Of a DNA stretch of 64,000 bases, positions 10,552-58,301 are shown one piece after another. Source of the DNA: an uncultured Gammaproteobacteria bacterium (GTDB lineage: Bacteria > Pseudomonadota > Gammaproteobacteria > Steroidobacterales > Steroidobacteraceae). Location of the stretch: positions 4,504 to 68,503 of the forward strand of contig CAVPJQ010000020.1 in NCBI GenBank assembly GCA_963705495.1. Direction: 5' to 3'. Both the position numbers and the translations under genes were made by a program. Below the pieces are notes generated by a model. That model saw nothing but the letters and a program-made list of their open reading frames with translations. It did not search any database and was not told where the DNA came from. Numbering within the stretch: position 1 is the stretch's first letter; the number at the start of each line of letters is the position of its first letter.

Positions 10552-11059
10552 GCATATCCGCTGGTGATTCTCGCGCTCGCTCAGGCGTTTTTCCCGGGGC
10601 AAGCGAACGGCAGTCTGGTCCGCCGCGACGGCAGAGTCATCGGCTCGATGCTCATCGGCCAGAGGTTCGATGACGCCCGCTACTTCTGGGGGCGGCCGTC
10701 GGCGACATCACCGATGCCCTACAACGCGGCCGCATCGTCGGGAACGAATCTCGCTCCCACGAATCCGCAGCTCGCTACGGACGTGACAGCGCGCAGCAAT
10801 GCTCTCGCCAAAAGCACACGGCGATTCCGCTGCTCCGATCCCGCTGGACCTCGTGACGACATCCGGAAGTGGACTTGATCCTCATGTCAGCGTCCGCGCG
10901 ATGCTGTACCAGGTCGAGCGCGTCGCCGCTGCACGCGGACTTGATCCAGCCGCCGTGCGCGCACTCGTTGAGCAGCATATCGAGCCACCGGCTCTTGGCT
11001 TTCTCGGACAGCGCCGAGTCAATGTTCTCGCCGTGAATCTCGCACTCGACGAATATTAG
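10552..11059 (+). pseudogene. kdpC: KdpC fragment lacking its N-terminus, plus one frame interruption
   Basis: [23 protein letters not shown]...[44 protein letters not shown] is KdpC. A frame change near 10812 (A-run) leads to [19 protein letters not shown]...VNVLAVNLALDEY. No kdpB lies between the A and C parts. Confidence 0.85.
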
Positions 11060-18115: not shown

Positions 18116-18128
18116 GCCGGAGCGACCC

Positions 18129-21319: not shown

Positions 21320-21324
21320 GAAGC

Positions 21325-22312: not shown

Positions 22313-22479
22313 AATTTCTGCCCGGGTTGTTGGTTTTCATGAATACCTTGAAAGCGCGCGAGCTGTCTCCATCGTCGGAGAAATGATACCGCCCGCGTCC
22401 GGGGCCTCGCGAGCGGATTGGGATGCTGCTAATGTCGCCGTCGGCCGTATCGCGACCAAAAACCAAGAACGGTGGGCGT

Positions 22480-25006: not shown

Positions 25007-26858
25007 ATGTCCGCCAATATCCAGGGCAGCCCTGAGCTGCGACCCAGTGGCTCCAAGCTCGATCTGATCCGTGCCACCGTGGCTGCGATCTCGCGCCATG
25101 GCCTCTCGGAATTGACTTCGGCCAAGATCGCGAGCGCGGCGGGCCACACGGCCGCTTCGGTCAATTTTCACTTCGGCGTCCAAGGAAGCGCTGCTCCTCG
25201 CCACGTTGCGCGAGGTCTCCGAGGAGTTTGCCGAGAGCATGGCAGCCGTGCTCGCCGATGCAGGCGACGACGCATTGCTGGGCCTGCTCGGAATCATCGA
25301 TGCGAGCCTGAGCCGGCGACTGAGCGAGTCGCAGAAGATCGCGGTGTGGTACGCATTCCTGGCCGAGTCGAATGCGCGCCAGGACTACCAGCGCATCTGC
25401 GGTGAGCGCGACCAGTCTTACAGCCAGACGGTCACGACGCTTTGCACGCGGCTGATCGCCGCCCGCGGCGTCGAGGGCTGGCCCGACGCCGAGGCCGTCG
25501 CGCTCGGCCTGACGGGTCTCATCGATCAGCTGTGGCAGGGCATTCTGTTCGAAGGCGACGACTTCGATCGTGACGCTGCGAAGCGCCAGTGTCGCGCCTA
25601 TCTGTGCAGCGTCTTTCCGTGGCTCGCCGATCGTATCGAGGCAACTGCGCCGGCGAAAGCAAAGGTTCGAGCCTTGCAGCCGGAAGTGCGGACACCGACA
25701 GATCCGGCGCTGCGCTACACCTTGCCGGCCTGGGTCTATCACAGCGAGGAGTTTCACGAGCTCGAGAAGGAACACCTGTTCCTGCCTTCATGGCAGATCG
25801 TCTGTCATGTCAGCGAGCTCGCTTCTGCCGGGGACTATGTCGCGTTCGAGTTCTTCGGCCGGCGGGGCTTCGTCATCCGTGATGACGCCGGAACGCTGCG
25901 TGCCTTTGACAACGTGTGCGCGCATCGCGCGCACGCGGTCGTGGGCGGGCAGCGCGGTCACTGCGCGAAATTCCTGACCTGCCCGTACCACGGCTGGACC
26001 TATCATCTCGATGGACGCAATCGCAGTGTCAGCGCGCCCGACACGTTCCCGAAGTTCGATCGGTCGAAGTTCGGGCTCAAGCCGCTCGAGCTCGAAGTGT
26101 TCTGCGGCATGGTGTTCGTGAGGTTCCGCTCAGGCGAAGCGAGCGTCGCAGAGCGCATGGAGCCTCACAAGGCGGAGCTTGCTCATTACCGGATCGAGCA
26201 GATGGTGCCGCTCGACGAACTCTGGGTTCACGACGTGGAGATCGACTGGAAGAACCTGGTCGAGAACTATGTCGAGGACTACCACTTTCCCATGGGTCAC
26301 CCGGGCCTCTCGGCATTGATGGAGTCGCAGTACGATCGCGAGGTCCTGCCGGCGGGCACGATGCGCTTGAGTCACCGGATGCGCGAGACACCGCTCAAGT
26401 CCTGGAGCGCGCAGCGCTACGCGAAATTTCTGCCGACGATCGAACATCTGCCCGAGACCATGCGTCGCCGCTGGACCTACATCGGGCTGTTCCCCAATGT
26501 GTTCTTCGACATCTACCCGGAGTGGCTGGACTTCTTCCAGCTGGTGCCGACCGGGCCTGGGCGTACGCAGATCCGCGCCCGCTCGTATGGTTTCCCGGAT
26601 GACCGGCGCGAGATGCGGGCCGCTCGCTGGCTGTGCGCACGCCTCAACACACGTGTGCAGGCGGAAGATGAAGTGCTCACGCGCTCGGTGCAGCGGGGGC
26701 TCTCCTCCGGCGCGTATACGCAGGGCATTCTCTCGTCCAAGGAAATCGTGCTGGCCGGGTTCCAGGACTGGATCCGGGCTCGGCTACCGGTGACGCACCT
26801 CACGCAGGCGCCGGCCCGCGGCACAGTCGCGGCACGCAATTCCAGCCTGGCGATCTGA
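25007..26858 (+). pseudogene. BetI-type TetR regulator continuous with a Rieske [2Fe-2S] ring-hydroxylating oxygenase alpha subunit (no stop between them), one single-base frame interruption
   Basis: GGGAG RBS before ATG 25007. HTH LIRATVAAISRHGLSELTSAKIASAAGHTAASVNFHFG, extra base at 25178, then SKEALLLATL...AVWYAFLAE. A 25-aa linker follows, then the Rieske motif CAHRAHAV...CPYHGWTY and the catalytic domain NYVEDYHFPMGHP. Confidence 0.75.
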
Positions 26859-26869: not shown

Positions 26870-28265
26870 TCAGATCGCGCGCAGGTACCACTCGTAGTCG
26901 CGATCCGTGATCTCGGCGTGGAAGCGGTCGCATTCTTCGCGACGGCACGTCGCGAACAGGTCGTGATAACGCTTGCCGAGGTACTGCGGCAGCACGGTTC
27001 CCTTGTCGAATGCATCGAGCGCCGCTTCCCAGCGCAGCGGCAGCCCAACCCTTTCCTCGATGACCTCGCCCTGCGCAACCATCGGGCCGGGTTCGATGCG
27101 GTTGGTGATTCCGTGGTGAATGCCCGCGAGAATCGCCGCCATCACCAGGTAGGGATTCCCATCGGCGCCACCGGGTCGATGTTCGATACGCGTGTCCTCG
27201 GGTGCTGAAAGTGGCACCCGCAGCGCGACCCCACGATGATTGACGCCCCAGTTGGGCGCGAGCGGGACGAACAGTCCGGGCCGATAGCGTCGATAGGAAT
27301 TCGCCGTAGGCGCGAAGATCGCCATGGATTCGGCCATCGTTGCCGCAAGACCGCCGACGGCGTGGCGCAGCGTGTCGGAAAATGGTTGCTCCGGAGCCAG
27401 GCCCGGCAAACACATTGCGACCGGATTTATCCGTAAGGCTGACGTGCACGTGCAGGCTGCAGCCCGCTGCCTGCGCAAACGGTTTCGCCATGAAGCTCGC
27501 GCCCAGGCCGTGCCGTCTCGCGACAGCCTTGACCGCCCGCTTCAAGAGTACGGCGTGGTCGCACGCACGCTCTGCGTTGGCCACGTGACGCAGATTTACC
27601 TCGAACTGGCCCGGCGAGAATTCCTTCAGCGTGGCGCCCGCGGGGATGTTCTGTGCTTCGCAGACCGCGTACAGCTCGGCCAGGAACGGATCGACATCCT
27701 CGACGTCCTCCATGCTGCCGTACTGTGGCCCATCCTGCGGCCGACGCGTCCCCGGTATGTTGCCAACCTTCGGGGAGGGGCGATTGCCGTCCGAGACCGG
27801 ATCCGCTGAATCGAGCAGATAGAACTCGAGCTCCGTCGCCGCCACGGCTGTCAGCCCCAATTCCTGCAGCGGTCGTGCAGCGTTTCTGAGCACCTGGCGC
27901 GGGTCGGCGAAGAACGGCTCGCCATTGGAATTCGCCATCACGAGCAGCAGCTGCGCGGTCGGCACCTGCGCCCAGGGCACGGGCGCAAGAGAGCCAGGCA
28001 CGGCCGTCGAGATCGCGTCTGGATCACCGTCACGGCTCCCGCTGTCGATGCGCTCGAACGTCTGCCCCTTGCTGTCGAGCAGCACAGTTGCGCCGCAGAA
28101 GTTGAGGCCTTCCTTGAAGGGCTTCGCGAACTCGTCACGCACGACTCGCTTGCCGCGCAGGATTCCCAGCATGTCCGGTTGCAGGAGCTCGAGCAGCTGC
28201 GTATCCGGGTATCGTTCGAGATAGGCCTGCAGCTCCCCAGGCGCGCGATTCGTTTCTTTGTTCAT
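26870..28265 (-). pseudogene. glutamine synthetase family protein (gamma-glutamylpolyamine synthetase, PuuA-like), one frame interruption
   Basis: MNKETNRAPGELQAYL...ELEFYLL...KEFSPGQFEVNL...ASFMAKPF then, in another frame, NSYRRY...NHRGVALRVP...RIEHRPGGADGNPYL. The frame change is near 27400. Its ATG overlaps the upstream stop (ATGA). Confidence 0.85.
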
Positions 28266-29100
28266 GAGTTCTTCCCCGCCGATTTGCCCGTGGCGCGGGC
28301 GCTGCGCCACGCGACTGCAGCCTTCGCCCCTTCGCGTTTCAGGATGGCATTGAATTCGCGCGACTCCGCGGACTCGGAAGTTTCGATGGTCACGTTCAGT
28401 TCGAGCGCCTGCAGCAGTGCCTCGCGCATGCCCGCCGATGTCGAGGCTGCGGTTGATCGCCTGTTTCGTCAGTTTCACGGCCAGCTGGATCATTGGCGGC
28501 GACGCGCCGGGCAAGCTCGAGAGTCCGGTCGAGCGCCTGTCCTGCCGGGACGACGCGATTGATCAGCCCCATGTCGAGCGCGTCGGCCGCGGTGACCCGA
28601 TCATCGCCGCTGAGGAGCAGATACTTCGCGCATTTCGGCCCAGCGAGCCAGGGCAGCAGCATCGCTACGATGCCGCTTCCGAATCGGACCTCTGGCGCAC
28701 CGAAAAAGCAGTCCTCGGACGCGACCGTGAGATCGCAGGCGAGCGCGAGCTCCATGGCACTGCCGAGGCAGTAGCCATGTGTAGCAGCGAGCGTGACCTT
28801 GGGACAATCCCAGAAGCGCATGATGATCTCAAAGTCGTTGCGCAACGCCTGGCGGACGTGCTCGGGTTCGGGCTTGCCGGCGCTTTCGATTTCCATGTCC
28901 AGATCGAAGCCGGCCGAGAAGGCGCGGCCGGCACCGGCGAGCACGATCGCGCGAACCGAGAGATCCGCTTCCGCGGCGTCGAGCGCACTTCCAAGTTGAG
29001 CGATCATCTGTTTGTTGATCGCGTTCAGTTTGTCGGGCCGGTTGAGCATCAACAGGGCGATGCCATCGCGAAGCTCGCTGCAAACCAGTGCACCGGCCAT
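28262..29100 (-). pseudogene. enoyl-CoA hydratase/isomerase (crotonase) family protein, two frame interruptions
   Basis: IALLMLNRPDKLNAI...LAGAGRAFSAGFDL...GYCLGSAMELALACD. C-terminus recovered in two other frames (IQLAVKLTKQAINRSLDIGG, MREALLQALELNVTIE...). Frame changes lie near 28495 and 28430. Confidence 0.8.
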
Positions 29101-29110
29101 CTGCGTCACC

Positions 29111-30635
29111 TCAGGACAGCCGAAACCACGCGGACTTCGACTGCATGTAGCTCTTGATGCTGTCGAAGCACTTGTCGCGCGCGTGACCCGACTGCTTGTA
29201 GCCGCCAAACGGCTGGGTCATGTCGCCTTCGTCGAAGGAGTTGATCCAGATGATGCCGGCCTCGATACCGCGCACCAGCCGGAACGCGGTGTCGAGATCG
29301 CGGGTCCAGACGCCGGCGGCAAGCCCGTAGATGGTGTCATTCGCTATGGCGATGGCCTCGTTCGACTCCATCGAACGGAATCACGGTGGCGACCGGGCCC
29401 GAAGATTTCCTGGCGTGCAATCGTCATGTCGTTACGCACGTCGGTGAAGAGAGTAGGGCTGACGTATGCGCCTGCATCCATACCCCGCGGTGCGCCGCCG
29501 CCGAACTGCAAGCGCGCGCCCTCGCGTCGTCCGGTCTCGATCAGGTTCAGCACCCGTTGCTGCGCTTCGCGCGTTACCAGCGGACCGAGGTTCGTCGCGG
29601 GATCGAGCGGATCACCCGGCTGAAAGGCGTCCTTGCCGAGCTCGATGAATCGCTCGACGAACCGCTCGTGGAGCGAGCGATCGACGAGCAGCCGCGAGCC
29701 GGCATTGCAGACCTCCCCCATGTTGGAAAATATCCCACGGTAGGCGGCGGTGACCGCACGATCGAGATCCTGCGACGTCGGCGAGGAACACCTGCGGTGA
29801 CTTGCCGCCGCACTCGAGCGCGACCTGCTTCATGTTCGACTGGCCCGCGTACTGGAGGATCAGCTTCCCGACCTCGGTCGAACCCGTGAAGGTGATCTTC
29901 GCGACGTCGGCGTGCAGCGCGAGCGCCTTGCCAGCGACTTCGCCCAGTCCGTTGACGACGTTGAACACGCCCGGCGGCCCGCCCGCCTCGACGAACAGTT
30001 CCGCAAGTCGCAGGCAACTCATGGGCGCCTGTTCCGCGGGCTTGAGGACCACCGTGTTGCCGGCGGCCAGCGCGGGAGCGATCTTCCACACGGCCATCAG
30101 CAGCGGATAGTTCCACGGCGAGATCGCGCCGACGACGCCGAGCGGCTCGCGCAGGACCATGTGCATGACGCCGGCTTCCGTGTTCGTGACGCTCGCCCTC
30201 GATCTTGTCGACGCACTCCGCCATGAAGCGAATCGTGTCGATGACGGAAGGCAGATCGACGCCGACCACGTCGGCGATCGGTTTGCCCATGTCGAGTGTT
30301 TCGAGCACCGCGAGGGATTCGGCGTGCTGTTCCACCAGCGTCGCGAAGCGATACATGATCTCCATGCGCTGCCGGGGCGCGATCCGTGACCAGGATCCGT
30401 CCTTGAACGCGCGCCTGGCCGCCGCAACTGCGCGATCGATGTCCTGCTCGGTGCCTGCCGACATCTCCGCGAGCGGTTCGCCGGTCGCCGGATTGACGGT
30501 CGCGAATCGTCCGCCTTTCGCGGCATCGACGTATCGACCCTCGATGAAGAGGCGTGTCTCGATGCGGGCGCGCGCCGCGTTCGCCGCAGCCTGCCAGCGC
30601 ACCTTGTCGTAGTTGCCTAGTGTCTGAAGGCTCAT
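29111..30635 (-). pseudogene. NAD-dependent aldehyde dehydrogenase (PuuC/PauC-like), at least four frame interruptions
   Basis: Four ORF pieces tile one ALDH: [11 protein letters not shown]...[56 protein letters not shown]...IANDTIYGLAAGVWT...GGYKQSG. Frame changes lie near 30190, 29760, 29397 and 29365. Confidence 0.85.
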
Positions 30636-32760
30636 CGAGCTTGCCTCGCTTGTGGCTCGACCTGGTGATGCGGCTGGCGACCGACGATGAGTGCATCGAC
30701 GATGACGCAGCCATTCGCGTGCACGATCACCGGATTCAAATCGATCTCACTCGACTCGATCGCCGAGACCGGCGACCACCGCGGAAAACTGCGCCGCCGT
30801 CCTGCAGAATGCGTCCACGGCTAGCGGGCGACTTGTAGCGCGGGCTGTGCAGAAGAGCGCCGAGCTTCAGCCGCTCGACTAACCTATGGGCTTCGGCGGC
30901 ATCGAAGGGCGGCAAAGCATAGACCACATCGGCGAGCGCCTCCACGTGCACGCCGCCGAATCCGACCAGCACGACAGGTCCGAACTGATCGTCGTGAACC
31001 ATGCCGAGCAGCATCTCCACGCCCGGGGTGCGGATCATCGGTGCGACCAGTGCGCGCGGACCGATCCGGTTCGACAGGTCCTGGTAAGCAGCGTCAGATC
31101 GGCCTCGTCCTCGATGTTCATCCGTACGCCGTCGCGGTCCGACTTGTGGTCGATGCCGCGCATGGCAGTCTTGAGGACGACGGGATAGCCGAGCTCGCGC
31201 GCGGCCGCGCGCGCTTCCAGCGCGCTCTCGACGATGCGACCCGGGTTGGCCGGGCAACTGGAAGTCCCGCAGCAGCGTCATCGCCTCGTGTTCATCGAGC
31301 TTCGCGTGGCTCGCGAGATGAGTGCGCCACTGGGTGAGTACCGGCTCCGGCAGCTGCGAACACAGGCCCGCGCTCGCGCGCTTGATGGTCGCGATAGTCC
31401 AGCAGGCACTTCGCCCCGCGCAGAAACGAACGGACGCCGTCGAGCACCGGGAAACCTGCACGTGTCGAGGCGATGACCTGCGCAGTCGGTTCCGGTACCC
31501 TGGTGATTGGCAACGAGAAATGCAGGCTTGCCGGACGCCGCGTGCCCCGCGCGCAGGTAGTCGAGATAACCGGAATGGATGCCGCCCCCTGCGACGCGAT
31601 CATGGATGACCGCGCCGAAGGCAGCGCCCGGATCACACATCAACGCGGCGAAGCATTCCTGCATCGCGACGTGATAGTCCGGGCCGCCGGTGCTCCAGGC
31701 ATCGAGGGGATTGATCGGCGGCAAGCCGGGATCAAGGAGTGCAGCGAGCTGCGCCGTGGTGGCGGAGCGAGATCTGCGTGAGCGGCACGCGCGCCTCATG
31801 AGCCAGATCGATGAGCAGCTGCCGTTCACCGCCCGAGTCGTGAATCGATACCAGACCGCCGGCCCCGACCGCGATGCGGCTGCGCGAACATGATGAGGGC
31901 CGTGGCGAGCTCATCCATGTCGTCCACGCGCTGCACGCCGTAGCGATCGAACAGCGCCTGATACACGGCGTCCTCGCCGGCGATGGCGCCCGAATGCGAG
32001 ACGGCCAACCTGGCGGACGAGCTCCGTACGACCCACCTTCAGCGCGACGATGGGTATGCCGCGCTCGTTGCGCCTTCTCGAACGCGCGAGCAAGCCCTTG
32101 CGGATTGCGCGCGGTCTCCATGAACAGGCCCACGGCGCGGGTCGTCGGCTGATCGAGCGCGAAGTCCAGGTACTCGTCCATCGTGACCGCCAGTTCCTGG
32201 CCGGTCGATACCACGAGGTTGAAGTCGATGCGCTCCTCGCTATCGACGATGCCGCACATTCCGGAGCCCGAGTGACTGATGTAGGCGACGTTTCCGCCGC
32301 GCGCGTGCACTCGCGTCTCGAATCCGCACGCCCAGATGCCAGCGGCGAAATTGTAGAAGCCCATGCCGTTGGCGCCGCAGACCACGAGTCCTGATGCGCG
32401 AATCTTCGCGAGCACGCGCTCCTGAAGATTTGGCTTGCGATCCTGCGCCAGCACGAGCGAAGACATGATCGTTGCGGCGCGCGCGCCATGAGCGATGACC
32501 TCGTCGAGCGCTGCTTCGATGCGCTCGTCGCTGACCGCGAAGATCACGTGCTCGACCGGCTCCGGCAGGGCCGCGAGTGAAGGAAAGCACGGCACACCGC
32601 AGACCGATTGATAGCGAGGGTTGACCGCAAACAGTGCACCATCGAATCCGCCTTTGAGGAGGTTTGCGACCTCGTGCGACCGACGGTTCCGGTGCGCTCG
32701 GTCGCGCCCACCACAGCGATTGAGTGTGGGACGAAGCAAGGGTTCCAGGCGATGAGGCAT
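30632..32760 (-). pseudogene. ADP-forming acyl-CoA synthetase (CoA-binding, succinyl-CoA-ligase-like and ATP-grasp domains), about eleven frame interruptions
   Basis: Pieces in all three frames tile one roughly 709-aa protein: SIAVVGATERTG, FAVNPRYQSVCGVPCF, VCGANGMGFYN, YISHSGSG, IPIVALKVGRTE, AVSHSGAIAGEDAVYQALFDRYGV, NPLDAWSTG, EIDLNPVIVH. Its stop overlaps the ALDH start (ATGA). Confidence 0.75.
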
Positions 32761-32783
32761 GTCAGCCCCGAACCGCGCGGCGG

Positions 32784-33980
32784 TCAGAAGTCCCCGGCGG
32801 GAGTGGCGCGGCGCCGCGGAGGATCGAAGAACACACCTTCGACCACGAGGCATCGCGCCATCACGCGCGACCACTTGAGCTCGCGCTGGTAATAGATTTC
32901 CGCCCAAAGCTCATCCCCCGGCTTACCCCAGGGCATGTTCAGCGAAGCGAGCGCGATGTTTGACTTTGCAGACGGCGACCATTCCGCGGACGTTACGGTA
33001 CCCACGACATTGCCATTGCGGTGAGCGTCGTAGATATAAGAGGAGCGTGCGGGCTTGTTACCTTCGACGTCCAGTCTCACCAGCCGATAGCGTGAGCCAC
33101 GGCGCTGCTCCTCGAGCAAGGCGCGGCGACCATTGAAATTGGGCTTGCCGAAGTCGACCAGACGGCCCAGATCGAGCTCGAACGGCGAGCGTGCACGATC
33201 GGGGTGGATCGCCTGGTCGGCGGGCAGGAAATCCACCTGCGCCTGGATGAAACCGGCCTCGATGCGCGCGACTTCCAGTGCATGAGTGCCCATTGGACGG
33301 ATCCCGTAAAGCGCTCCTTTTTCGAACAGGGCGTCCCAGAGCGCGAGCGCCTGTGAGGGCTCGACCCACAGCTCATAGCCGAGATCGCCCGTGAAACCGG
33401 TGCGTGAGACCATCAGCTCGCCGCCGGCAAACGGGAAATAGGCGATGCCAAACGGCGAGAGGCGTTCGATGCCAGAGCATCCGATAGCCTTCAGCACCGC
33501 ACAGCTGGTGGGTCCCTGCAGAGCGAGGGCGGCAACGTCGTGAGTGTCCTCGACGATTGATACGTCGAAACCGTGAGCTGAGCGCGACAGCCATTCGAGC
33601 TGGCGTTCCTGCGAGCAAAGTCGGTAGTCGCCTTCGCGAAGGTGAAACACCGTGCCATCGTCGATGACCTTGCCGTCATCGTTGCACCAGACGCTGTAGC
33701 CCACCCTGCCGGGCTTGATCTTGGCGACATCACGCGTGATCAGCCGGTTCAGGAACGGCAACGCGTCGGCGCCGGTAATGCGGTGCTTCGTCATCGGCGT
33801 GAGATCGAACACCGCGCAGGCGTTACGGATCGCCGCGTATTCCAGTGCCTCGTCGAAGTATGCATCTGCGGTCGTGTAGTCCTTCCACCGATGCCATTCG
33901 TTCAACGTGTTGAGCGCGGACGTGCGCGGATGGAACGGGGTCTGATAGACCGCGGTCCGGAAATGTTCCTTGTGCATCAT
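32784..33980 (-). CDS. GcvT-family aminomethyltransferase (folate-binding), stand-alone, intact
   Basis: 398 aa. NACAVFDLTPMTKHRITGADALPFLNRLITRD, SRTGFTGDLGYELW, ARIEAGF. Its ATG overlaps the upstream stop (ATGA at 33980-33977). Confidence 0.85.
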   Translation of the reverse strand: MMHKEHFRTAVYQTPFHPRTSALNTLNEWHRWKDYTTADAYFDEALEYAAIRNACAVFDLTPMTKHRITGADALPFLNRLITRDVAKIKPGRVGYSVWCNDDGKVIDDGTVFHLREGDYRLCSQERQLEWLSRSAHGFDVSIVEDTHDVAALALQGPTSCAVLKAIGCSGIERLSPFGIAYFPFAGGELMVSRTGFTGDLGYELWVEPSQALALWDALFEKGALYGIRPMGTHALEVARIEAGFIQAQVDFLPADQAIHPDRARSPFELDLGRLVDFGKPNFNGRRALLEEQRRGSRYRLVRLDVEGNKPARSSYIYDAHRNGNVVGTVTSAEWSPSAKSNIALASLNMPWGKPGDELWAEIYYQRELKWSRVMARCLVVEGVFFDPPRRRATPAGDF

Positions 33981-35557
33981 GCCGCGCGCTCCTGGCGGAG
34001 CACCGCGTGGGCTGCGTTCTTGCCCGCAGCCCCCATCACACCGCCGCCCGGGTGACATCCGGCGCCACACAGGTACAAACCGTTTACGGGCATCGCGTAT
34101 TGGGCCGCGCCCGGAACCGGCCGCAGCATGAGGAACTGATCGAGGGCGAGTTCGCCGTGGTGCCAGTGACCGCCGGTGATTCTGAATTCGCTTTCGATGT
34201 CGACCGGCAGGAGCAATTCGGATGCGATCACCTGGCGACGCAGGCCGGGAGCATATCGTTCGAGCACAGCCAGCGTGGCTTCGAGAAGCGCGGCTCGTGC
34301 CTTGTCAGTGCTTGCGCGCGGATCGAACGGCGCGTACTGCACGATCGCCGACAGCACGTGCTTGCCAGCCGGCGCCAGGGTTCTGTCATGGACGCTGGGG
34401 ATCGTGATCTCCAGTGCCGGAGCCGGCGAGCATTCACCGTATTTCGCGTGATCGAACGCGTGTTCGATGTAGACCGGATCCGGAGCGACAACCAACCGTT
34501 CACCCGCGAGATCCGGCTGCAGCCCCGCGAAGGAGGGCAGGCCATCGAGCGCGAGGTGCAGTTTCGCCGCCATTCCTTTGGTCCGAATGTGCCGGATTCG
34601 GTGCACGAAGCCTGTTTCGAGGTGGCGGGCGCCGAGCAGTTGGAGCAGCGTGCGTGAGGGATCCGCGTTCGAGATCACCGTAGTGGCTCCGACCTGCTCT
34701 CCGTTCTCGAGCTCCACGCCGGATACGCGATCGCCTTCGAGCATGATGCGTGCAACCGGGCTGCCGGTGCGCACGGTCGCTCCGCTCGCGGTCGCAGCCT
34801 TACCGAGTGCCTCGCTCACCGCGCCCATCCCGCCTTCCGGCAGCGACAAGCCACCGGCCACGCCCATCGCCTGCCCGCTCAGCCGGTGCAGCAACGCCAG
34901 CACCGAGTTGTTCGAGCGTGGCGCGAGATTCGTGCCCAACACTGCATCGAGTGCGAGGGTGCCCTTGAGTAGTGGTGAATCAAACGTCTCTTCGAGGACG
35001 TCGAAGATGTTGATGCCCGCGATACGCAGAAACTCACGCATTGAATCGCGGCCCAGGCGACGGATGTCGAGGCCCAGCATCGCCGCCGAGATGAGCTCCG
35101 ATCGGCCGCCGCCCAGGAGTCGCGGTGGACGGCGGTTGTGCTGTTGCCCGAGTACCCGCGCAAACCGCAGCATCTGCGCCTGGTATTCCCGTAGCGCAGT
35201 TCGGTCCTGCTCCGGCAGAGAGCCCGACTGCAGCTCCGCTCCATGCAGCACCAGGTGATTGCCGTTCGCATCGAGGGCGACGGTGCGCAGGTCGGCGCGC
35301 GCGGTCCTGAGTCCGTGCTGCGCCAGGCTGAGCTCGCGGCTGATGCTCGGATCGAGCAGATAGGAAAGATGTGCGCAGGCGGAAACTCGAAACCCCGGCG
35401 CAAAGTCGCGCGTGACCGCGGCGCCACCGATGCGGTTCGAAGCCTCGAGCACCAATACTTCGCGCCCCGCCTTGGCGAGGTATGCGGCGCACACGAGGCC
35501 GTTGTGTCCCGCGCCGATGATGATTGTGCGGTTGCCCTTGTTCATGGCGTCAGTCAT
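33977..35557 (-). CDS. NAD(P)/FAD-dependent oxidoreductase, phytoene-desaturase (CrtI/COG1233) family, copy B, intact
   Basis: 526 aa. IIIGAGHNGLVCAAYLAKAGREVLVLEASNRIGGAA and C-terminal LYLCGAGCHPGGGVMG. Confidence 0.85.
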   Translation of the reverse strand: MTDAMNKGNRTIIIGAGHNGLVCAAYLAKAGREVLVLEASNRIGGAAVTRDFAPGFRVSACAHLSYLLDPSISRELSLAQHGLRTARADLRTVALDANGNHLVLHGAELQSGSLPEQDRTALREYQAQMLRFARVLGQQHNRRPPRLLGGGRSELISAAMLGLDIRRLGRDSMREFLRIAGINIFDVLEETFDSPLLKGTLALDAVLGTNLAPRSNNSVLALLHRLSGQAMGVAGGLSLPEGGMGAVSEALGKAATASGATVRTGSPVARIMLEGDRVSGVELENGEQVGATTVISNADPSRTLLQLLGARHLETGFVHRIRHIRTKGMAAKLHLALDGLPSFAGLQPDLAGERLVVAPDPVYIEHAFDHAKYGECSPAPALEITIPSVHDRTLAPAGKHVLSAIVQYAPFDPRASTDKARAALLEATLAVLERYAPGLRRQVIASELLLPVDIESEFRITGGHWHHGELALDQFLMLRPVPGAAQYAMPVNGLYLCGAGCHPGGGVMGAAGKNAAHAVLRQERAA

Positions 35558-37166
35558 CTCGCCACCCTTCGGGCACGAGGTTGGGTCGATTGAGGTCCAG
35601 CAGGATCTCGCGCGCGGCGTTAGCGCCCGGTGCAGCCATCACGCCGCCGCCCGGGTGAGTGCCCGAGCCACACATGTAGAAGCCTTTGACTGGTCCGCGA
35701 TACTGCGCGTAGCCCGGGAAGGGCCGGTTGAACAACAGCTGATCCATCGTCAGCTCGCCCTGAAAGATGTTGCCCTCGGTCAGGCCGACTTCATTCTCGA
35801 GCTCGCGCGGCGTGCGCACTTCGACGTGGCGAATCAGCTGCTTGAAGTTCGGGCTGTAACGCGCGATCTGGTCGAGCACCGTTTGCTTGAACCCGTCGCG
35901 GTCCTGATCTGTCCAGTCGCGTCCATGGATCTTCGGCGGTACGTACTGCACGAATACCGACATGAAGTGCTTGCCGGCCGGCGCCATGGTCGGATCCGTC
36001 ATGGACGGAATCAGCAGATCAAGGTACGGCTCTTTCGACCAGGTGCCGTTCTTCCAGTCATCGTACGCGCGCTCCATTTTCTCGAGCGAATCGAGAAAAT
36101 GGATGTCGCCGAAGCGCAGCGGGTTGTCGCGCCCGAGCGCCGGAAACTCGGGAAGACCATCGAGCGCGATATTGAGCTTCCCCGATGAGCCGCGGATCTT
36201 GAAGTTGCGCGCGCGTTTGACGAATTGGGGCGTCAGGTCTTTTTCGTCGAACAGTTTGCCGTAAGTGCGCTTCGGGTCGAGGTTCGAGACGACAATCTTG
36301 GCGCGGTACTCGTTGCCATTCGCGGTCGCGACGCCTGTGACTCGGCCATTGCGAACCATCACACGCTCGACGGGTGCATCGGTGATGATTTCTCCACCGT
36401 GAGACTTGAACGACGATGCGATCGCCTTGGACACGGCACCCATCCCGCCGCGCGCGAACCCCCAGGAGCCGATGGACCCGTCGACGTCGCCCATGTAGTG
36501 ATGCAGGAGCACGTAGGCGGTCCCGGGCGAATAGACGCCGAGCGCGGTCCCGATGATGCCGCTTCCGGAGAGATGCGCCTTGATGAGGTCCGATTCGAAG
36601 TATTCGCCGAGAAAATCAGCGATGCTCATCGTGTAAAAGCGAATGGTGTCGTAGATCACTTCTTCGCCGAGCTTCGCGAATTCCTTGGCGAGATAGATCA
36701 TTTCGCGAATGTCCCGGGGCCGGAGCGAGGAGGGATCCGGGGGTGTGCGCAGCAACAACGGGCGGATGAACTTGCACTGACGCATGACGTCGGTCGAATA
36801 CCGGCTGTAGGCGTCGGCATCACGCGCGTTGTGTCGCGCGAATTCCCGCCGCTGCACGTGCTCGTCCGTGTAGTTGCCGAGGATGTCTCCGGTGCGCGTG
36901 ATCGTCACCCCACCGCCGTAGGGCACGACCTGTAATCCGTGGCGCGCCAGTTGCAGGTCGCGGAAGATCTCCGGTCGCAACAGGCTGCAAACGTACGAGC
37001 AGTTCGAGTAGATCCAGCCTTCCTGAATCTCGCGGCTGACCGCCGCACCGCCGATCCACGGGTTACGCTCGAGCACCAGCACCTTGAGCCCGGAGCGCGC
37101 CAGGTAGGCGGCGTTCGTCAGGCCGTTGTGGCCGGCGCCGACGACGATGGCATCGTAGTTCGTCAC
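35550..37166 (-). CDS. NAD(P)/FAD-dependent oxidoreductase, phytoene-desaturase (CrtI/COG1233) family, copy A, intact
   Basis: 538 aa. VVGAGHNGLTNAAYLARSGLKVLVLERNPWIGGAA and C-terminal FYMCGSGTHPGGGVMA. It overlaps the next gene by 8 nt. Confidence 0.85.
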   Translation of the reverse strand: MTNYDAIVVGAGHNGLTNAAYLARSGLKVLVLERNPWIGGAAVSREIQEGWIYSNCSYVCSLLRPEIFRDLQLARHGLQVVPYGGGVTITRTGDILGNYTDEHVQRREFARHNARDADAYSRYSTDVMRQCKFIRPLLLRTPPDPSSLRPRDIREMIYLAKEFAKLGEEVIYDTIRFYTMSIADFLGEYFESDLIKAHLSGSGIIGTALGVYSPGTAYVLLHHYMGDVDGSIGSWGFARGGMGAVSKAIASSFKSHGGEIITDAPVERVMVRNGRVTGVATANGNEYRAKIVVSNLDPKRTYGKLFDEKDLTPQFVKRARNFKIRGSSGKLNIALDGLPEFPALGRDNPLRFGDIHFLDSLEKMERAYDDWKNGTWSKEPYLDLLIPSMTDPTMAPAGKHFMSVFVQYVPPKIHGRDWTDQDRDGFKQTVLDQIARYSPNFKQLIRHVEVRTPRELENEVGLTEGNIFQGELTMDQLLFNRPFPGYAQYRGPVKGFYMCGSGTHPGGGVMAAPGANAAREILLDLNRPNLVPEGWRDD

Positions 37167-37178
37167 GCTCAGGCGCCT

Positions 37179-38517
37179 TTATCCCGCGCGATGCGCGGGC
37201 CCGGAGTTTCGTGCCGCGTTCACGACGCGATCCACGGCGATCTCGAAGCGCTCGAGGGTTTCCGTGAGGCAGCGTTCATCGTGCGCCTCGCAGATGAACC
37301 AGGGTTCGCGCGAGTCCGGCTCGCACAGCACACCCAGATCGTGCAGCTCCGGTGCCAGCGCCTCGTAGAAGGTGTAATCGCTGGAGGCCCAGTCGCGATA
37401 GTCTCGCGGCGGCGTCTCGCTGAAGAACAGTCCGCTCATCGATGGGATGCCCGCTGAACGAGTGCCTGATGCCCCGCTGCGACAGAATCTGGCTGATGCC
37501 GGCGCGCAGGCGCGTGCCGTACTCCGCGATGGTCTGCAGCGCGGGCGTTTCGGCAAGGATCTGCAGGCACTTTTCGGCGGCGGCGAGCGCGACCGAATGA
37601 GCGGTGAATGTGCCGCCGTGCACGACGCCCTTGCCGAGCCGGCGCATGATGTCCTCCCGGCCGGCCAGCACCGAAATCGGGTAGCCATTCGCCATCGCCT
37701 TGGCGAACGTGCACAGATCGCTGCGCACACCAAACAGTTCCTGGCAGCCGCCCCGTGCCACACGGAACCCGGTCTTCACCTCATCGATGATCAACAGGAC
37801 GCCGTAGCGGTCGCAAAGTGCGCGCGCGGCGTGCAGATATTCGCGTGTCGCCGCGATCGAGCAGCAGTTGCCCATGATCGGCTCGATGAGAAACGCTGCG
37901 ATCTGGTCCCCATAGGCCTTGAACACGCTTTCCAGCCGATCGGCATCGTTCATTGGCACCGCGTGCAGGAGCGAGCGCAGGATTCCCGGCACGCCGGCGC
38001 TGTAGGGGACGAGGTGCGGGTCTCCGGCCGACGGGCGCCAGCCCTCGATCAAAGTCGTCCACAGCGCGGCGTCAAACACGCCGTGGTATCCGCCTTCGAT
38101 GACGACGTACGAGTCCCGGCCCGTGTGCGCGCGGGCGAGACGCAATGCGGCCATGACGGCCTCGGTGCCCGAGTTTGAAAAGCGCACCAGCTCTGCGGCC
38201 GGCACCATGCGCGAGATGCGCTCCGCCACCGCGTATTCGCGCTCCGTCCCGAGCGCAAAAACGCCACCCACCTCGATGCCGGCGCGGGCTGCCTCATCGA
38301 TTCTGGGATCCGCGTAGCCCAGGATGCACGGGCCGTAGGCCAGCCGGTAGTCGATGTATTCATTGCCATCGATGTCGCGGAGGCGGGCACCCTTGCCAGA
38401 GGCCGCGTAGATGGTCTTGTCGTCGCCCCAGTAACGGAAGTTCGATGAGACGCCCAGCGGCAGCCGGGTGATGGCCTTCTGGAAGTGCGCGTTGGATTTT
38501 CTGAGGCTTCGTGCCAT
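37179..38517 (-). pseudogene. class-III (PLP) aminotransferase, glutamate-1-semialdehyde aminomutase-like, one frame interruption
   Basis: GGGAGGG RBS plus ATG 38517. GARLRDIDGNEYIDY, FSNSGTEAVMAALRLARAHTGR, LIIDEVKTGFR, TFAKAMANGYP. The C-terminus continues in the 37179..37763 frame. The frame change is near 37440. Confidence 0.85.
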
Positions 38518-38600: not shown

Positions 38601-38625
38601 CACTGAATAGCTGTTCATTCATTGA
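38601..38625. promoter_or_regulatory. candidate operator in the divergent promoter region (imperfect palindrome TGAATAGCTGTTCA plus TCATTGA half-site)
   Basis: Lies in the 141-nt divergent intergenic region. It shares the TCAATGA/TCATTGA and TGAACAG words with the 24922-24963 repeat. Confidence 0.3.
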
Positions 38626-38658
38626 TTTGGGCCCGGAAGCGGTTATTATCGGCCCCGG

Positions 38659-39417
38659 ATGCCCGCGTGGGCTTACGAGTTGCTGGCTTTGCCGCAGTCG
38701 AACCAGAACCCCAAGCGGCGGCGCCCGGTCAAGGCGTCGCGCCGCACGGCTGCGCCCGAAGAACGCCGGCAGCAGCTGATCGAGGCGACCATCCGCTGCG
38801 TCGCGAATCGGGGCCTGGCGCAGACCACCATCGCCACCGTGGCGCGGGAGGCGGGCCTGAGCCAGGGCATCATCAACCTGCACTTTCGCAGCAAGGACCG
38901 CTTGCTCATCGCTACGCTGCGATACCTGGCGGACGAATACCGCAGCGCTTGCGAGGAAGCGGCTGCCGCGGCGGGAGCTTCGCCTGTCGCCGGGCTGCAG
39001 GCGATGGTCGATCTGGATTTTCAACGCAGCATCTGCACGCGGGACAAGCTCGCTGTCTGGTTTGCCTTCTGGGGTGAGCGCCGATTCCGGCCAACGTATC
39101 GGCGCATCTGCGCAGCGCGCGACAAGTCCTACGAAGATCGGGTGCGCGTCCTGTGCGCAAGACTGTGTCAGCAGGGCGCCTATCCCGATGTGGATCCGGC
39201 GCTGGTGGCTGACGGACTCTCGGCACTGACCGATGGTCTGTGGCTTGACCTGCTCGTCAGGCCCGACTCGATGAGCCGGGAGCTGGCGCGACGAATCAGC
39301 ATGTCGTATCTCGCGGATGCTTTTCCGCGTCACTTCGAGCGTCCCGCGATTGAGCGACGCATCGCGGCCGATCGACGCGTCACCGCGAACCGACCGGCTG
39401 TGGTCGGCGCAAGATAG
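38659..39417 (+). CDS. TetR-family (BetI-type) transcriptional regulator
   Basis: 252 aa. HTH LIEATIRCVANRGLAQTTIATVAREAGLSQGIINLHFRSKDRLL. The C-domain AVWFAFWGERRFRPTYRRICAARDKSY is paralogous to the TetR part at 25007. Confidence 0.85.
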   Translation: MPAWAYELLALPQSNQNPKRRRPVKASRRTAAPEERRQQLIEATIRCVANRGLAQTTIATVAREAGLSQGIINLHFRSKDRLLIATLRYLADEYRSACEEAAAAAGASPVAGLQAMVDLDFQRSICTRDKLAVWFAFWGERRFRPTYRRICAARDKSYEDRVRVLCARLCQQGAYPDVDPALVADGLSALTDGLWLDLLVRPDSMSRELARRISMSYLADAFPRHFERPAIERRIAADRRVTANRPAVVGAR

Positions 39418-39423: not shown

Positions 39424-40593
39424 ATGCAGATCATCCTTGATGAGGCGGCGAGGGCGTGGCGCGAGCGTGCCGCGCAGTTCGCCAGCCAGGAATTGATCCC
39501 CTGGGAGGTAGAAGCCGAACTCAACGAGGGGAAATTGCCACCCGAGGTGAAGGCGCGGCACCGCAAACTCGCAGTCGAACTAGGCTTCAGCGCGATGGAC
39601 GTACCGGCTGCGCATGGCGGCCGCGACGCGCGTGTGATCGATCAGGTGGCGGTCTGGGAGCAGCTTGGCAGGGTCACCAACGCGTTGTGTTGGTGCTTTT
39701 CCGAGCCTCATCGCTGGATGTTCGAGGCCTGCAGCCGGGAGCAGCTCGAGCGGTACGTGCTGCCCCTCATGAGCGGCAAGCGCAAGGAGTGCTACGCAAT
39801 CACGGAGAGCGGCTCGGGCTCGGACGTCGAGTCGATCCAGACCACCGCGCAACGCTGTCCCGGCGGCTACTCGATTCGCGGGGAGAAGTGGTACGTCACG
39901 AGCGCCAATCACGCCGATTATTTCATCCTGCAGGCGCGGCTCACCGACGGACCGCACGCGGGGTCGCACTCGCTCTTCTTCATCGACAAGGATCAGCCCG
40001 GCATCGAGCTGGTGCGCACACCGGCTTTCAGTCACACCTTCAGTGATCATCATCCGATCTACCGGTTCAACGACGTCGTGGTGCCGGAGAGCCAGCGCCT
40101 CGGCGCGGAAGGCGACGGCATGCAGCACGCCCATAGCTGGTTCCGCCGCGAACGGCTGATGATCGCGGCGCGCTGCTGCGGCGCCTCCAGTCGCTTGATT
40201 GAAGAGGCGAGCGCCTTCGCCAGCACGCGCATGATCGGCGGTGAGCCGCTGGCTGAACGGCAGATGATCCAGGCGATGCTGGCGGACAGCGTGACCGAGC
40301 TCTGGGCGGCACGGCTCATCACCTACGAGGCCGCGCAGGCGCACGATCGCGGCGAAGAGCTGAGGTCCCTCCATGCGCGCTGCGCGATCGCGAAGCTCTA
40401 CGCCTCGGAGGCCGCGAACCGGATTGTCGACCGCGCATTGCAGATATTCGGCGGGCGAGGCTACATGCGCGAAAACTGCGTCGAGCGATTCTTTCGGGAA
40501 TTGCGCGTGGATCGGATCTGGGAGGGCGCCAGTGAAATTCAGCGTCTCATCATCGCGCGAGCGCTGCAGAAGCGCGGGCTCGAGGGGATGTAA
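39424..40593 (+). CDS. acyl-CoA dehydrogenase family protein, intact
   Basis: 389 aa. CYAITESGSGSDV, GEKWYVTSA, QIFGGRGYMREN...RIWEGASEIQ. Confidence 0.85.
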   Translation: MQIILDEAARAWRERAAQFASQELIPWEVEAELNEGKLPPEVKARHRKLAVELGFSAMDVPAAHGGRDARVIDQVAVWEQLGRVTNALCWCFSEPHRWMFEACSREQLERYVLPLMSGKRKECYAITESGSGSDVESIQTTAQRCPGGYSIRGEKWYVTSANHADYFILQARLTDGPHAGSHSLFFIDKDQPGIELVRTPAFSHTFSDHHPIYRFNDVVVPESQRLGAEGDGMQHAHSWFRRERLMIAARCCGASSRLIEEASAFASTRMIGGEPLAERQMIQAMLADSVTELWAARLITYEAAQAHDRGEELRSLHARCAIAKLYASEAANRIVDRALQIFGGRGYMRENCVERFFRELRVDRIWEGASEIQRLIIARALQKRGLEGM

Positions 40594-40596: not shown

Positions 40597-41688
40597 GTGA
40601 AAGCGCTTGCGCTCCTCATCGCCGCAGTCGCTGCCGCGTGTGCGGTCGCTGCCGGGAGCGCAGAAGAGAAGATCCTGAACGTCTTCACGTGGCCGGACTA
40701 CATCGGTCCGAACACCATTGCAGACTTCGAAAAGGAGTACGGAATCAAGGTGAACTACGACACCTACGATTCCACCGAAATGGCGGAGGCGCGGCTACTG
40801 GCCGGTCGTACGGGTTACGACGTGGTTGATCACGCCGAACGTTATTCGGCGCGCCTGATCCCGATCGGCGTCTACCGTCCGCTCAATCGCGCCAAGCTCA
40901 CCAACTGGGGGAACCTCGACCCCTGGGTGCTCAACACCCTGCAGTCAGCGGATCCGGGCAATCGCTATGGCGTGCCGTATCTGTGGGGCACGACCGGATT
41001 TACCTACAACGTGAAGATGATCCGTGAGCGCATGCCGAACGCACCGGTCGACAGCGCAGACATGATCTTCAAGCCGGAGGTCGCGCGCCATTTCGCGGAT
41101 TGCGGCATCTCGTTCCTCGATGAGCCCACCGACGTGATCCCGATGGCCATGATCTATCTCGGCCACGATGCCAACAGCGTTGATCCTGCCGATCTCGCGC
41201 AAGTCGAGAAGCTTCTCAAGGCGGTGCGCCCGTACATCCGCTACTTCAGCTCGGCGAAGATGCTGGTCGACTTGCCCAACGAGGAGGTCTGCATTGCGAT
41301 GAGCTGGTCGGGAGACTACGCGCAGGCGATGTACCGGGCACAGGAGGTTGGCAAGCCGGTCGAGCTCGCATACACGACACCGCGCGAAGGGACGCTGGCG
41401 TGGTTCGACCTGTGGTTCATTCCGGCGGATGCGCCGCATCCCGACAACGCCCACCTGTTCCTGAATTACCTGTTGCGCCCGAAGGTGATCGCGGACATCA
41501 GCAACGAGGTCCGGTATGCGGCGCCAAACATTCCGGCCATGCCCTTCGTTGTGCCCGAGGTTCGCAATGATCCCGCGGTGTACCCGCCCGAAGAGGTGCG
41601 GCTCAGCCTGCACAAGGGCGTTCTTCACAGCCCGAAGGAGGAGCGCGCGAGGTCCCGTCTGTGGTCCCGCGTGAAGACCGGACTGTGA
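40597..41688 (+). CDS. potF: polyamine (putrescine/spermidine-type) ABC transporter periplasmic binding protein
   Basis: GTG start and signal peptide. Collinear similarity to PotF: LNVFTWPDYIGPNTIADFEKEYGIKVNYDTYDS, YLWGTTGFTYN, FLNYLLRPKVIADIS. Confidence 0.85.
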   Translation: MKALALLIAAVAAACAVAAGSAEEKILNVFTWPDYIGPNTIADFEKEYGIKVNYDTYDSTEMAEARLLAGRTGYDVVDHAERYSARLIPIGVYRPLNRAKLTNWGNLDPWVLNTLQSADPGNRYGVPYLWGTTGFTYNVKMIRERMPNAPVDSADMIFKPEVARHFADCGISFLDEPTDVIPMAMIYLGHDANSVDPADLAQVEKLLKAVRPYIRYFSSAKMLVDLPNEEVCIAMSWSGDYAQAMYRAQEVGKPVELAYTTPREGTLAWFDLWFIPADAPHPDNAHLFLNYLLRPKVIADISNEVRYAAPNIPAMPFVVPEVRNDPAVYPPEEVRLSLHKGVLHSPKEERARSRLWSRVKTGL

Positions 41689-54889: not shown

Positions 54890-54935
54890 TGTTCGCTCTC
54901 TCCGCAGGAAATCCGGGCTACTAGTCTTCGTCACG

Positions 54936-58284: not shown

Positions 58285-58301
58285 GGCAGTAACCTCATCG
58301 A

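Follow-up and report, generated by a model that had tools for sequence, protein, structure and literature searches.

An operon of eight minus-strand genes in an uncultured member of the Steroidobacteraceae (Gammaproteobacteria) raises the question of what so familiar a set of gene families does in so unfamiliar a combination. The operon occupies positions 26870-38517 of a 64,000-nucleotide stretch of assembly GCA_963705495.1 (contig CAVPJQ010000020.1, positions 4,504 to 68,503), and this whole stretch is referred to here as the window. An earlier reading of the letters, hereafter the original prediction, had described a single expression unit for amine catabolism that corresponds to no characterised pathway. 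The locus appears to encode a conserved pathway whose core enzyme architecture and route are not assigned to any described system, and at its centre stands a triad of translationally coupled genes for two carotenoid-desaturase-like flavoproteins (Crt1 and Crt2) and a GcvT-like protein. As to function, we consider it an even call that the locus is a working divergon, controlled by a BetI-type TetR regulator, for the catabolism of an N-methylated, polyamine-like amine.

The operon and its invariant core

Six-frame analysis and Pfam scans of the window located all eight families on the minus strand in the order originally claimed. The first gene encodes a class-III (HemL/GntE-like) aminotransferase (37179..38517; Aminotran_3, 1.9e-61), its ATG preceded by GGGAGGG, which resembles a ribosome-binding site, and its true stop being the TAA at 37179-37181. 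Three intact genes follow, for Crt1, a CrtI/COG1233-type flavin adenine dinucleotide (FAD) flavoprotein (35550..37166; 538 amino acids; Amino_oxidase and NAD_binding_8), its CrtI-type FAD paralogue Crt2 (33977..35557; 526 amino acids; Amino_oxidase, 1e-21) and a stand-alone GcvT-like folate-binding protein (32784..33980; 398 amino acids; GCV_T, 2e-57, and GCV_T_C). The remainder comprises an ADP-forming (NDP-forming) acyl-CoA synthetase (ACS; 30632..32760; ~705 amino acids; CoA_binding_2, Succ_CoA_lig and ATP-grasp_5), a PuuC-like NAD(P) aldehyde dehydrogenase (ALDH; 29111..30635; ~506 amino acids; the Aldedh profile matched in pieces in different frames), a crotonase-family enoyl-CoA hydratase (ECH; 28262..29100; ~273 amino acids; ECH_1, 8e-41) and a glutamine-synthetase-like (GS-like) gamma-glutamyl ligase (26870..28265; ~459 amino acids; Gln-synt_C matched over 2-168 and 173-344 in two frames). 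The junctions were read directly from the sequence: the aminotransferase and Crt1 genes lie 12 nt apart, the stop of Crt1 and the start of Crt2 overlap by 8 nt (ATGACTGA), ATGA overlaps join Crt2 to GcvT, ACS to ALDH and ECH to GS, and gaps of 23 nt and 10 nt separate GcvT from ACS and ALDH from ECH, respectively. All seven agree exactly with what had been claimed, and the reading as a single expression unit stands.

Conservation was scanned with the GcvT-like protein as query and one genome per species, which gave 80 loci. Of these, 33 have all eight genes in order (Steroidobacteraceae, Lysobacterales and Woeseiaceae), with most of the others cut by contig ends, and the order still holds in Lysobacterales, Woeseiaceae and a marine single-cell genome where GcvT identity has fallen to 58-68%. 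Because the same order of eight genes recurs in so many loci, the arrangement lies far beyond chance, and a lack of conservation in relatives, which would have counted against the original prediction, was not what we found. The three genes Crt1-Crt2-GcvT, in this order, are more widespread still (70/80 loci) and extend to the cultured Alphaproteobacteria Shinella zoogloeoides ATCC 19623, Rhizobium sp. SL42, Fuscovulum ytuae and Parasedimentitalea marina, where Crt1 is 60-65% identical to that of the window. The overlaps between their stops and starts are shared by Gammaproteobacteria, Rhizobiaceae and Rhodobacterales. One Cellvibrionales metagenome-assembled genome (MAG; locus L075, 4015-17185) carries three GcvT-like genes and two Crt pairs, forming two triads of which one is permuted to Crt2-Crt1-GcvT with all three genes still present; FolD and PurU adjoin, and MFS and SSF transporters and a GATase complete the flanks. 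Judging from this locus, members of the triad family have evidently come to serve other substrates. PurU is also found near the triad in L079. Plasmids carry more distant homologues of Crt1 (35-41% identity), each a lone gene in an unrelated context, and these are uninformative.

The company that the triad keeps is similarly recurrent. A BetI-like TetR gene is found in 55 triad-carrying loci, and a class-III aminotransferase of the HemL/GntE-like type in 45 or of the omega-transaminase type in ~10, the two types being non-orthologous; further recurrent partners are GbcA-like Rieske oxygenases and PotF-family binding proteins with their ATP-binding cassette (ABC) partners. The constant partners of the alphaproteobacterial triads are the aminotransferase and the PotF-like importer, with no CoA enzymes, and in two cultured strains a large Fe-S flavoprotein of the old yellow enzyme/trimethylamine dehydrogenase type stands beside the triad. 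GS-like genes recur by the triad in three different arrangements. In one of the relatives, of the Acidiferrobacterales (L068), the order is aminotransferase-Crt1-Crt2-GcvT-DAO-GS-DAO, which places the triad inside a Puu-like gene set. The original prediction had likened the GS-like gene, taken with ALDH, to polyamine gamma-glutamylation and, taken with GcvT, to methylamine demethylation. Both resemblances proved relevant, with PuuA/PuuB-like or FolD/PurU genes by the triad in relatives, but the invariant core is the translationally coupled triad rather than the GS/ALDH pair.

The divergent arm and its regulator

The operon is one arm of a divergon, the other being a tightly spaced plus-strand series of TetR, acyl-CoA dehydrogenase (ACAD), PotFGHI and Rieske genes; Pfam confirmed these families, which the original prediction had named as flanking the operon. 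The divergent TetR gene (38659..39417; TetR_N and TetR_C_6, PF13977 5e-24) may instead start at 38776, as in the gene call of L091. Its orthologue in L003 just reaches the NCBIfam cut-off for BetI (PRK00767; 118.9 bits vs 118). Between the two arms lies the imperfect palindrome TGAATAGCTGTTCA (38604..38617), which abuts a sigma-70-like promoter (38622-38649) and is a plausible operator of this regulator. The motif, TGAA-N6-TTCA, recurs at the corresponding position in ~37 out of 44 related loci and occurs twice in the window, where 0.47 matches are expected; it was found by pattern search, its imperfection having hidden it from the inverted-repeat tool. Domains, the curated score of the L003 orthologue and the conserved candidate operator all point to a BetI-type regulator. 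Promoter and terminator scans of the window did not rise above background except at a single promoter-like site, which lies upstream of the TetR gene, and an Rfam scan of the window gave no riboswitch or other RNA family.

Six nucleotides after the TetR gene comes that of a short-chain ACAD (39424..40593; Acyl-CoA_dh N, M and C domains), with acryloyl-CoA reductase AcrC (186 bits) and crotonobetainyl-CoA dehydrogenase CaiA (181 bits) as its best NCBIfam matches, both under their cut-offs. The PotFGHI-type ABC importer (40597..44505, by Pfam) consists of a binding protein (40597-41688), an ATPase (~41682-42788) and two permeases (42785-43702 and 43699-44505). As in the Puu systems, the binding protein is of the PotF/SpuD type (4e-103 and 46% identity to Escherichia coli PotF), and it keeps the pocket residues W37, Y40, W244, D247, D278 and Y314 and both acidic clusters of the diamine site, while the distal end of the pocket is altered (S85A, S87R, A182E, E185D and F276W). 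With 383 bits against an NCBIfam cut-off of 636, it is a relative of PotF and no equivalog. The last gene of this arm encodes a GbcA-like Rieske oxygenase alpha subunit (44533..45752), its Rieske and Ring_hydroxyl_A domains falling in different frames; tblastn mapping showed it split over three frames in the window, and it is an intact 408 amino acids in L091.

A second oxygenase of this kind converges on the GS-like gene from the opposite side (25007..26858, plus strand). Here a BetI-type TetR of ~215 amino acids is fused to a GbcA-like Rieske oxygenase of ~400, giving ~616 amino acids, with the TetR_C_6, Rieske and Ring_hydroxyl_A domains sharing one open frame and a private insertion near 25177. 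The fusion is continuous in 17 related loci (L001, L002, L008, L009, L012, L014-L017, L020, L021, L023, L028, L039, L040, L049 and L057) and was called independently in L091 as 620 amino acids with TetR_N, TetR_C_6, Rieske and Ring_hydroxyl_A. Such a union of regulator and enzyme is unusual and possibly follows a PutA-like logic. Like the GbcAB/BetI regulon, then, the locus has a regulator that reaches the BetI cut-off and oxygenases that match GbcA best; however, the oxygenases score ~130-150 bits against a GbcA cut-off of 670, no GbcB-type reductase adjoins them, and one of them is fused to a TetR.

A further pair of minus-strand genes at 51796-54949, ~6 kb past the plus-strand operon, encodes a large Amidohydro_3 protein together with another class-III aminotransferase, of the omega type. 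A homologue of this amidohydrolase lies inside the Fuscovulum triad cluster, and others lie near the triad in L040 and L065.

Predicted chemistry and competing routes

Family membership was tested against NCBIfam equivalog cut-offs and Pfam. None of the eight products, nor the ACAD, the PotF-like protein or the oxygenases, reached an NCBIfam equivalog. The aminotransferase comes nearest to GntE (456 bits, cut-off 525) and the ALDH to PuuC (556 bits, cut-off 850); the ACS reaches 228-285 bits on models with cut-offs of 1200-1300. The GS-like protein scores 200 bits as a gamma-glutamylputrescine synthetase (GGputSyn; cut-off 650), and so is no PuuA-type ligase at equivalog level, and 188 bits as a type III glutamine synthetase (cut-off 470). 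Identity with PuuA and with PuuC was rejected on these scores. The enzymes nonetheless look competent in intact orthologues, in which the ALDH has its catalytic ECGGK and VCNAGS motifs, the ECH both catalytic Glu motifs (MELA and PEV) and the ACS, beside its three Pfam domains, the phosphohistidine segment (SHSGAIAG) of an ADP-forming synthetase; read against established family knowledge, the orthologues of the transaminase, ALDH, crotonase and NDP-forming synthetase all show the motifs to be expected of active enzymes. We found no description of the gene set in open-access papers and preprints, although an account in a subscription journal is possible, and no solved structure describing the system. 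With generic homologue names and no equivalog, the original statement that no characterised pathway matches is borne out.

The GcvT-like protein links the operon to one-carbon (C1) metabolism. It has the folate-binding module of the tetrahydrofolate (THF)-linked demethylases (both GCV_T domains), and the T-protein motifs FD(L/V)..M, IDDG/IDDL and SRTG(F/Y)TG align between it, T-proteins and the trimethylamine N-oxide (TMAO) demethylase Tdm. The C-terminal, formaldehyde-capturing domain of Tdm is its best NCBIfam match (248 bits, cut-off 1100), and the Tdm structure 9q5a matches at 2e-44, with T-proteins matching also; however, the catalytic N-terminal DUF1989 metal domain of Tdm is absent from the window protein, and its partners here are flavoproteins. 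Three known identities were rejected by score: Tdm itself, the glycine cleavage GcvT (TIGR00528, 146 bits, cut-off 236; PRK00389, 209 bits, cut-off 300) and DmdA (PRK12486, 140 bits, cut-off 410). Neither gcvH nor gcvP was present among the window open reading frames (ORFs) scanned. Strict three-gene linkage, conserved translational coupling and occasional FolD/PurU neighbours lead us to infer that the three products of the triad form a single enzyme, by which a C1 unit would be delivered to THF. The chemistry proposed is that of dimethylglycine and sarcosine dehydrogenases (DMGDH/SARDH) and 4-methylaminobutyrate oxidase. In these, as in dimethylglycine oxidase, SoxABDG and MgdABCD, a flavin oxidation partner likewise meets C1 capture by a GcvT fold; in those systems, however, the flavin domain is of the DAO/SoxB type, fused to or complexed with the GcvT fold, whereas the triad would reach its predicted activity with two CrtI-family paralogues and a separate GcvT-like subunit, and has no SoxD/SoxG-type subunits.

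From these parts we propose a route. The PotF-type ABC system would bring the compound into the cell, where N-methyl groups would be removed by the GbcA-like Rieske monooxygenases and then by the Crt1-Crt2-GcvT complex, the two CrtI-fold FAD proteins oxidising the N-CH3 bond to an iminium and the coupled GcvT-like subunit passing the C1 unit to THF to give 5,10-methylene-THF. The class-III aminotransferase would turn the resulting primary amine into an aldehyde, the PuuC-like ALDH would oxidise this to the acid, and the ADP-forming synthetase would form the CoA thioester. Desaturation by the divergently encoded ACAD and hydration by the crotonase would then lead the CoA ester into beta-oxidation-type metabolism; this CoA-dependent leg (ALDH, CoA activation, ACAD and crotonase) would belong to the Steroidobacteraceae and their allies. 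The GS-like ligase would gamma-glutamylate the free amino group of the substrate or of the released amine. An N-methylated, polyamine-like substrate is suggested because a polyamine-type importer and a transaminase recruited twice independently constantly accompany the triad, because BetI- and GbcA-like parts elsewhere handle methyl-ammonium groups, and because some relatives have Puu-like genes. Candidates would be N-methylated derivatives of putrescine or diaminopropane, or a quaternary aminoalkyl-ammonium compound. The Puu/Pau systems (E. coli PuuABCDE/PuuP; Pseudomonas PauA-D, SpuC and SpuDEFGH) share the GS-like ligase, PuuC-like ALDH, class-III aminotransferase and PotF/SpuD-like importer, and L068 comes closer to them by adding PuuB-like DAO oxidases. 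The locus differs in its sub-cut-off scores, in its extra folate module, Rieske oxygenases and CoA-dependent steps, and in its lack of PuuB and PuuD. As had been claimed, the larger window ORFs that were scanned include nothing of the PuuB, PuuD, Mgs or Mgd type; no DAO-type or GATase/C26 gene is present in the operon or these ORFs, and DAO genes appear only in the distant L068.

Several points weigh against this route. By sequence the flavoproteins are members of the carotenoid desaturase/ketolase family, so that homology does not support C-N oxidation, and amine oxidases in the PDB match them only in the FAD-binding N-terminus. FolD or PurU adjoins the triad in just 2 of the 80 loci, and triad neighbours in several distant loci (L061 and L066) give no amine signal or clue to the substrate. 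The neighbourhood encodes neither a reductase partner of the Rieske oxygenases nor an electron acceptor that the flavoproteins could use, and the gamma-glutamyl hydrolase (PuuD) that would complete a Puu-type route is missing from the operon and the scanned ORFs. We know of no abundant natural N-methylated polyamine established as a substrate. Finally, a plasmid of Shinella sumterensis (NZ_CP132306.1, 9123-18261) carries ECH, ADP-forming ACS and 3-hydroxyacyl-CoA dehydrogenase (HADH) genes, a single CrtI-like gene whose product is 41% identical to Crt1, and GcvT, with an aldolase and a BKACE-family gene following and a PotF-like ABC system upstream. Since a single CrtI-like protein and GcvT are here tied to ECH-ACS-HADH, the substrate could be an acyl-CoA or an omega-amino acid instead of a free polyamine.

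The alternative that survives best, unlikely as we hold it to be, is a route for quaternary amines of the gamma-butyrobetaine/carnitine type, which has much in common with the proposed one. The aminotransferase and ALDH would yield trimethyl- or dimethyl-aminobutyrate, from which, by way of the CoA ester, ACS, ACAD and ECH would make something like carnitinyl-CoA, following the Cai/Bco pathways, and the GbcA-like oxygenases and the triad would finally demethylate the ensuing product of the glycine-betaine, dimethylglycine or sarcosine type. Gamma-butyrobetaine is activated by an NDP-forming synthetase in Sinorhizobium. The operon shares CoA activation, a crotonase, a betaine-type regulator and an ACAD for which CaiA is the second-best match with CaiABCD and the Sinorhizobium Bco pathway, GbcA-like oxygenases accompany BetI-type regulators, and the gene that follows the S. 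sumterensis cluster belongs to the BKACE family of dehydrocarnitine cleavage. However, all of these matches lie far under equivalog cut-offs, the locus lacks a CoA-transferase, a thioesterase and a carnitine dehydrogenase, and the importer is of the polyamine (PotF) type where an OpuAC/BCCT-type betaine system would be expected. The alphaproteobacterial triads, with their aminotransferase and importer and without CoA enzymes, also speak against it, and the GS-like ligase would be left without a role.

A decidedly unlikely alternative concerns the flavoproteins themselves, namely that Crt1 and Crt2 do not act on amines but desaturate or oxygenate a carbon chain (acyl-CoA or alkyl) in the manner of CrtI, CrtD and CrtO, the GcvT-like protein having a separate C1 function. 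The paralogues are 36-37% identical, Crt1 being the better conserved, and both have the N-terminal GxGxxG and C-terminal HPGGG motifs of FAD binding. They match the Pfam Amino_oxidase profile end to end at a modest 66-78 bits. When looked for, a DAO/SoxB-type flavin domain was not found in them; instead they fall to the CrtI family, with CrtO ketolase as best NCBIfam match (Crt1 274 bits, Crt2 213 bits, cut-off 1000), crtI_fam at 113-129 bits (cut-off 238) and CrtI (4dgk, 1e-19) as the solved structure nearest to Crt1 by sequence. Foldseek searches with an AlphaFold2 model of Crt1 (pLDDT 80) likewise placed a carotenoid desaturase first (4rep, TM-score 0.72), followed at TM-scores of 0.55-0.61 by NicA2, monoamine oxidase, putrescine oxidase and the pseudooxynicotine amine oxidase Pnao. 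An amine-oxidising role of these CrtI-type proteins would follow from genomic context and a shared fold only. Nearness of sequence and fold to desaturases and ketolase therefore favours carbon-chain chemistry, as do single CrtI-like homologues that elsewhere adjoin CoA ligases, ALDH and ECH. Against it, the strict linkage of three genes, with its stop/start overlaps, survives phyla-level distances and a permutation of the order, and the amine-type partners are constant. A role in carotenoid biosynthesis proper was rejected, given the sub-cut-off scores and neighbours that are amine and CoA catabolic genes where crtB, crtE and crtY would be expected. The names given to 120 close homologues are generic, either "phytoene dehydrogenase-like" or "NAD(P)/FAD-dependent oxidoreductase."

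Highly unlikely, in our estimate, is a methylamine route without N-methylglutamate, in which the GS-like protein would be a gamma-glutamylmethylamide synthetase and the triad would demethylate gamma-glutamylmethylamide to glutamine and methylene-THF, the ACAD/crotonase pair freeing methylamine from a methylamino-acyl-CoA as a nitrogen analogue of DmdC/DmdD. This would explain the absence of a PuuD-type hydrolase, and it draws on the near-equal scores of the GS-like protein on type III GS/GmaS-type and PuuA-type models and on the three arrangements of GS-like genes near the triad. The scheme is purely logical, however, with no support from homology; most triad loci outside the Gammaproteobacteria have no GS-like gene, and the aminotransferase and PotF-type importer are left unexplained. 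Of the N-methylglutamate pathway (GmaS, MgsABC and MgdABCD), MgsABC and MgdABCD were not found among the operon products or scanned neighbours.

There is only a very slight chance that the locus serves a sulfonium route, in which the aminotransferase and ALDH would turn dimethylsulfoniopropylamine into dimethylsulfoniopropionate (DMSP) and the GcvT-like protein, ACS, ACAD and ECH would parallel DmdA, DmdB, DmdC and DmdD. In its favour, six gene families can be mapped onto that logic, four of them by type, and the last gene of the Fuscovulum triad cluster carries a DMSP-lyase family annotation. Against it, the GcvT-like protein scores lower on DmdA than on TMAO demethylase or GcvT and is locked to two flavoproteins where DmdA acts alone, and the synthetase is ADP-forming and not AMP-forming. 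The DmdA-DmdB-DmdC-DmdD pathway has nothing that corresponds to the flavoprotein pair or to the aminotransferase, ALDH, GS and Rieske genes, the Rieske, GS and BetI-type components go unexplained, and the carriers are chiefly soil and freshwater Steroidobacteraceae. Taking all the partners together, the proposed route for an N-methylated, polyamine-like amine accounts for them at least as well as any of these alternatives.

Frame breaks in this copy and the meaning of the locus

In the window only Crt1, Crt2 and GcvT are uninterrupted, and the other five operon genes change frame between 1 and 12 times each, which raises the question of decay. The breaks are private 1-bp indels (aminotransferase 1, ACS 12, ALDH 4, ECH 2, GS 1). 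A seven-way alignment gave 21 such window-private indels, 18 insertions and 3 deletions, where each of the six relatives has at most one; they lie at 37447, 37172, 32730, 32672, 32066, 32018, 31872, 31769, 31485, 31357, 31249, 31094, 30829, 30752, 30195, 29771, 29397, 29364, 28486, 28433 and 27392. The aminotransferase is shifted by the insertion near 37447 and its C-terminus resumes in another frame, the three ACS domains are scattered across three frames, all 4 ALDH indels are insertions, the 2 ECH insertions lie close to the 3' end, and the GS-like gene has its lone insertion at 27392. About two thirds of the private insertions have no identical adjoining base and hence show no homopolymer preference. 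Private indels are clustered, with 12 in the 2.1 kb of ACS and none in the 4.8 kb from Crt1 to GcvT or the 5.8 kb from TetR to PotI; the cluster spans 27.4-32.7 kb, with others scattered at 17.1-19.1 kb, 25177, 37447 and 44.8-44.9 kb. This suggests a local problem of assembly, polishing, quality or coverage.

All eight genes are intact in the closest relatives, which are two long-read metagenome bins at ~93% nucleotide identity (L001 and L002) and many Steroidobacteraceae MAGs, and on a 1.35-Mb contig with independent gene calls; the ACS, the most broken gene here, is intact in L002, L003 and L091. Once frames are corrected, the ratio of nonsynonymous to synonymous substitution rates (dN/dS) against L002 is 0.03-0.18 for every operon gene, broken or unbroken. 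Private substitutions fall at third codon positions in 65-93% of cases overall, and in 65-77% for the broken genes, the same as for private substitutions of L001 and L002. The same kind of splitting affects unrelated genes of the window, namely the two Rieske genes and an E1 dehydrogenase gene (17.1-19.1 kb). Because the indels are uniformly of 1 bp, biased to insertion and private to one assembly, and because purifying selection is undiminished, we read the breaks in this copy as consensus errors of the source assembly and not as decay. That the operon is a decaying pseudogene cluster with only Crt1, Crt2 and GcvT still functional draws on the concentration of the 21 indels in the ACS, ALDH, ECH, GS and aminotransferase genes, with none in the triad, but we give it next to no credence: dN/dS, the private indels and the codon-position bias shared with intact relatives led us to reject real pseudogenisation, and truly dead genes, which would have told against the original prediction, were not found. 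For annotation, this copy is a warning against inferring pseudogenisation from clustered 1-bp frameshifts in long-read metagenome assemblies.

Other features of the window include the fused E1 alpha/beta 2-oxoacid dehydrogenase, which occurs twice, split over three frames at 17090-19098 (plus strand) and intact at 20330-22336 (minus strand, 668 amino acids), with an E2 acyltransferase fragment at 19125-19598. One open frame at 9001-10878 (plus strand) joins most of KdpA (profile 2-483 of 548) to part of KdpC with no KdpB between, owing either to a genuine deletion or to an error of assembly. The G+C content falls from ~0.63 to 0.58-0.59 over the last 8 kb (56000-64000), where PAP2, cation efflux and TonB receptor genes lie, and the drop past ~56 kb may mark a different genomic island or a compositional boundary.

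It remains a tentative proposal, to which we lend somewhat less than even confidence, that the triad represents a kind of amine demethylase not recognised before, a heteromeric and folate-coupled enzyme that uses the carotenoid-desaturase fold, and that with importer, oxygenases, transaminase and CoA module it defines an undescribed, widespread route by which N-methylated polyamines or aminoalkyl-ammonium compounds are broken down. Should the triad prove to be a folate-coupled demethylase, it would be a third flavoprotein architecture for a reaction class central to C1 and nitrogen cycling, beside the DAO-type fusions and the Sox/Mgd heterotetramers, and it would give a function to many "phytoene dehydrogenase-like" genes of non-carotenogenic bacteria. 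Some carriers are in culture, among them Shinella zoogloeoides ATCC 19623, so that the question is open to direct test. Proteobacteria from soil, freshwater and marine sediment are among the carriers. Since dozens of genomes of uncultured Steroidobacteraceae, Lysobacterales and Woeseiaceae, sampled from soils, lakes and sediments, have kept the operon, its substrate is probably a methylated amine that is common in the environment.

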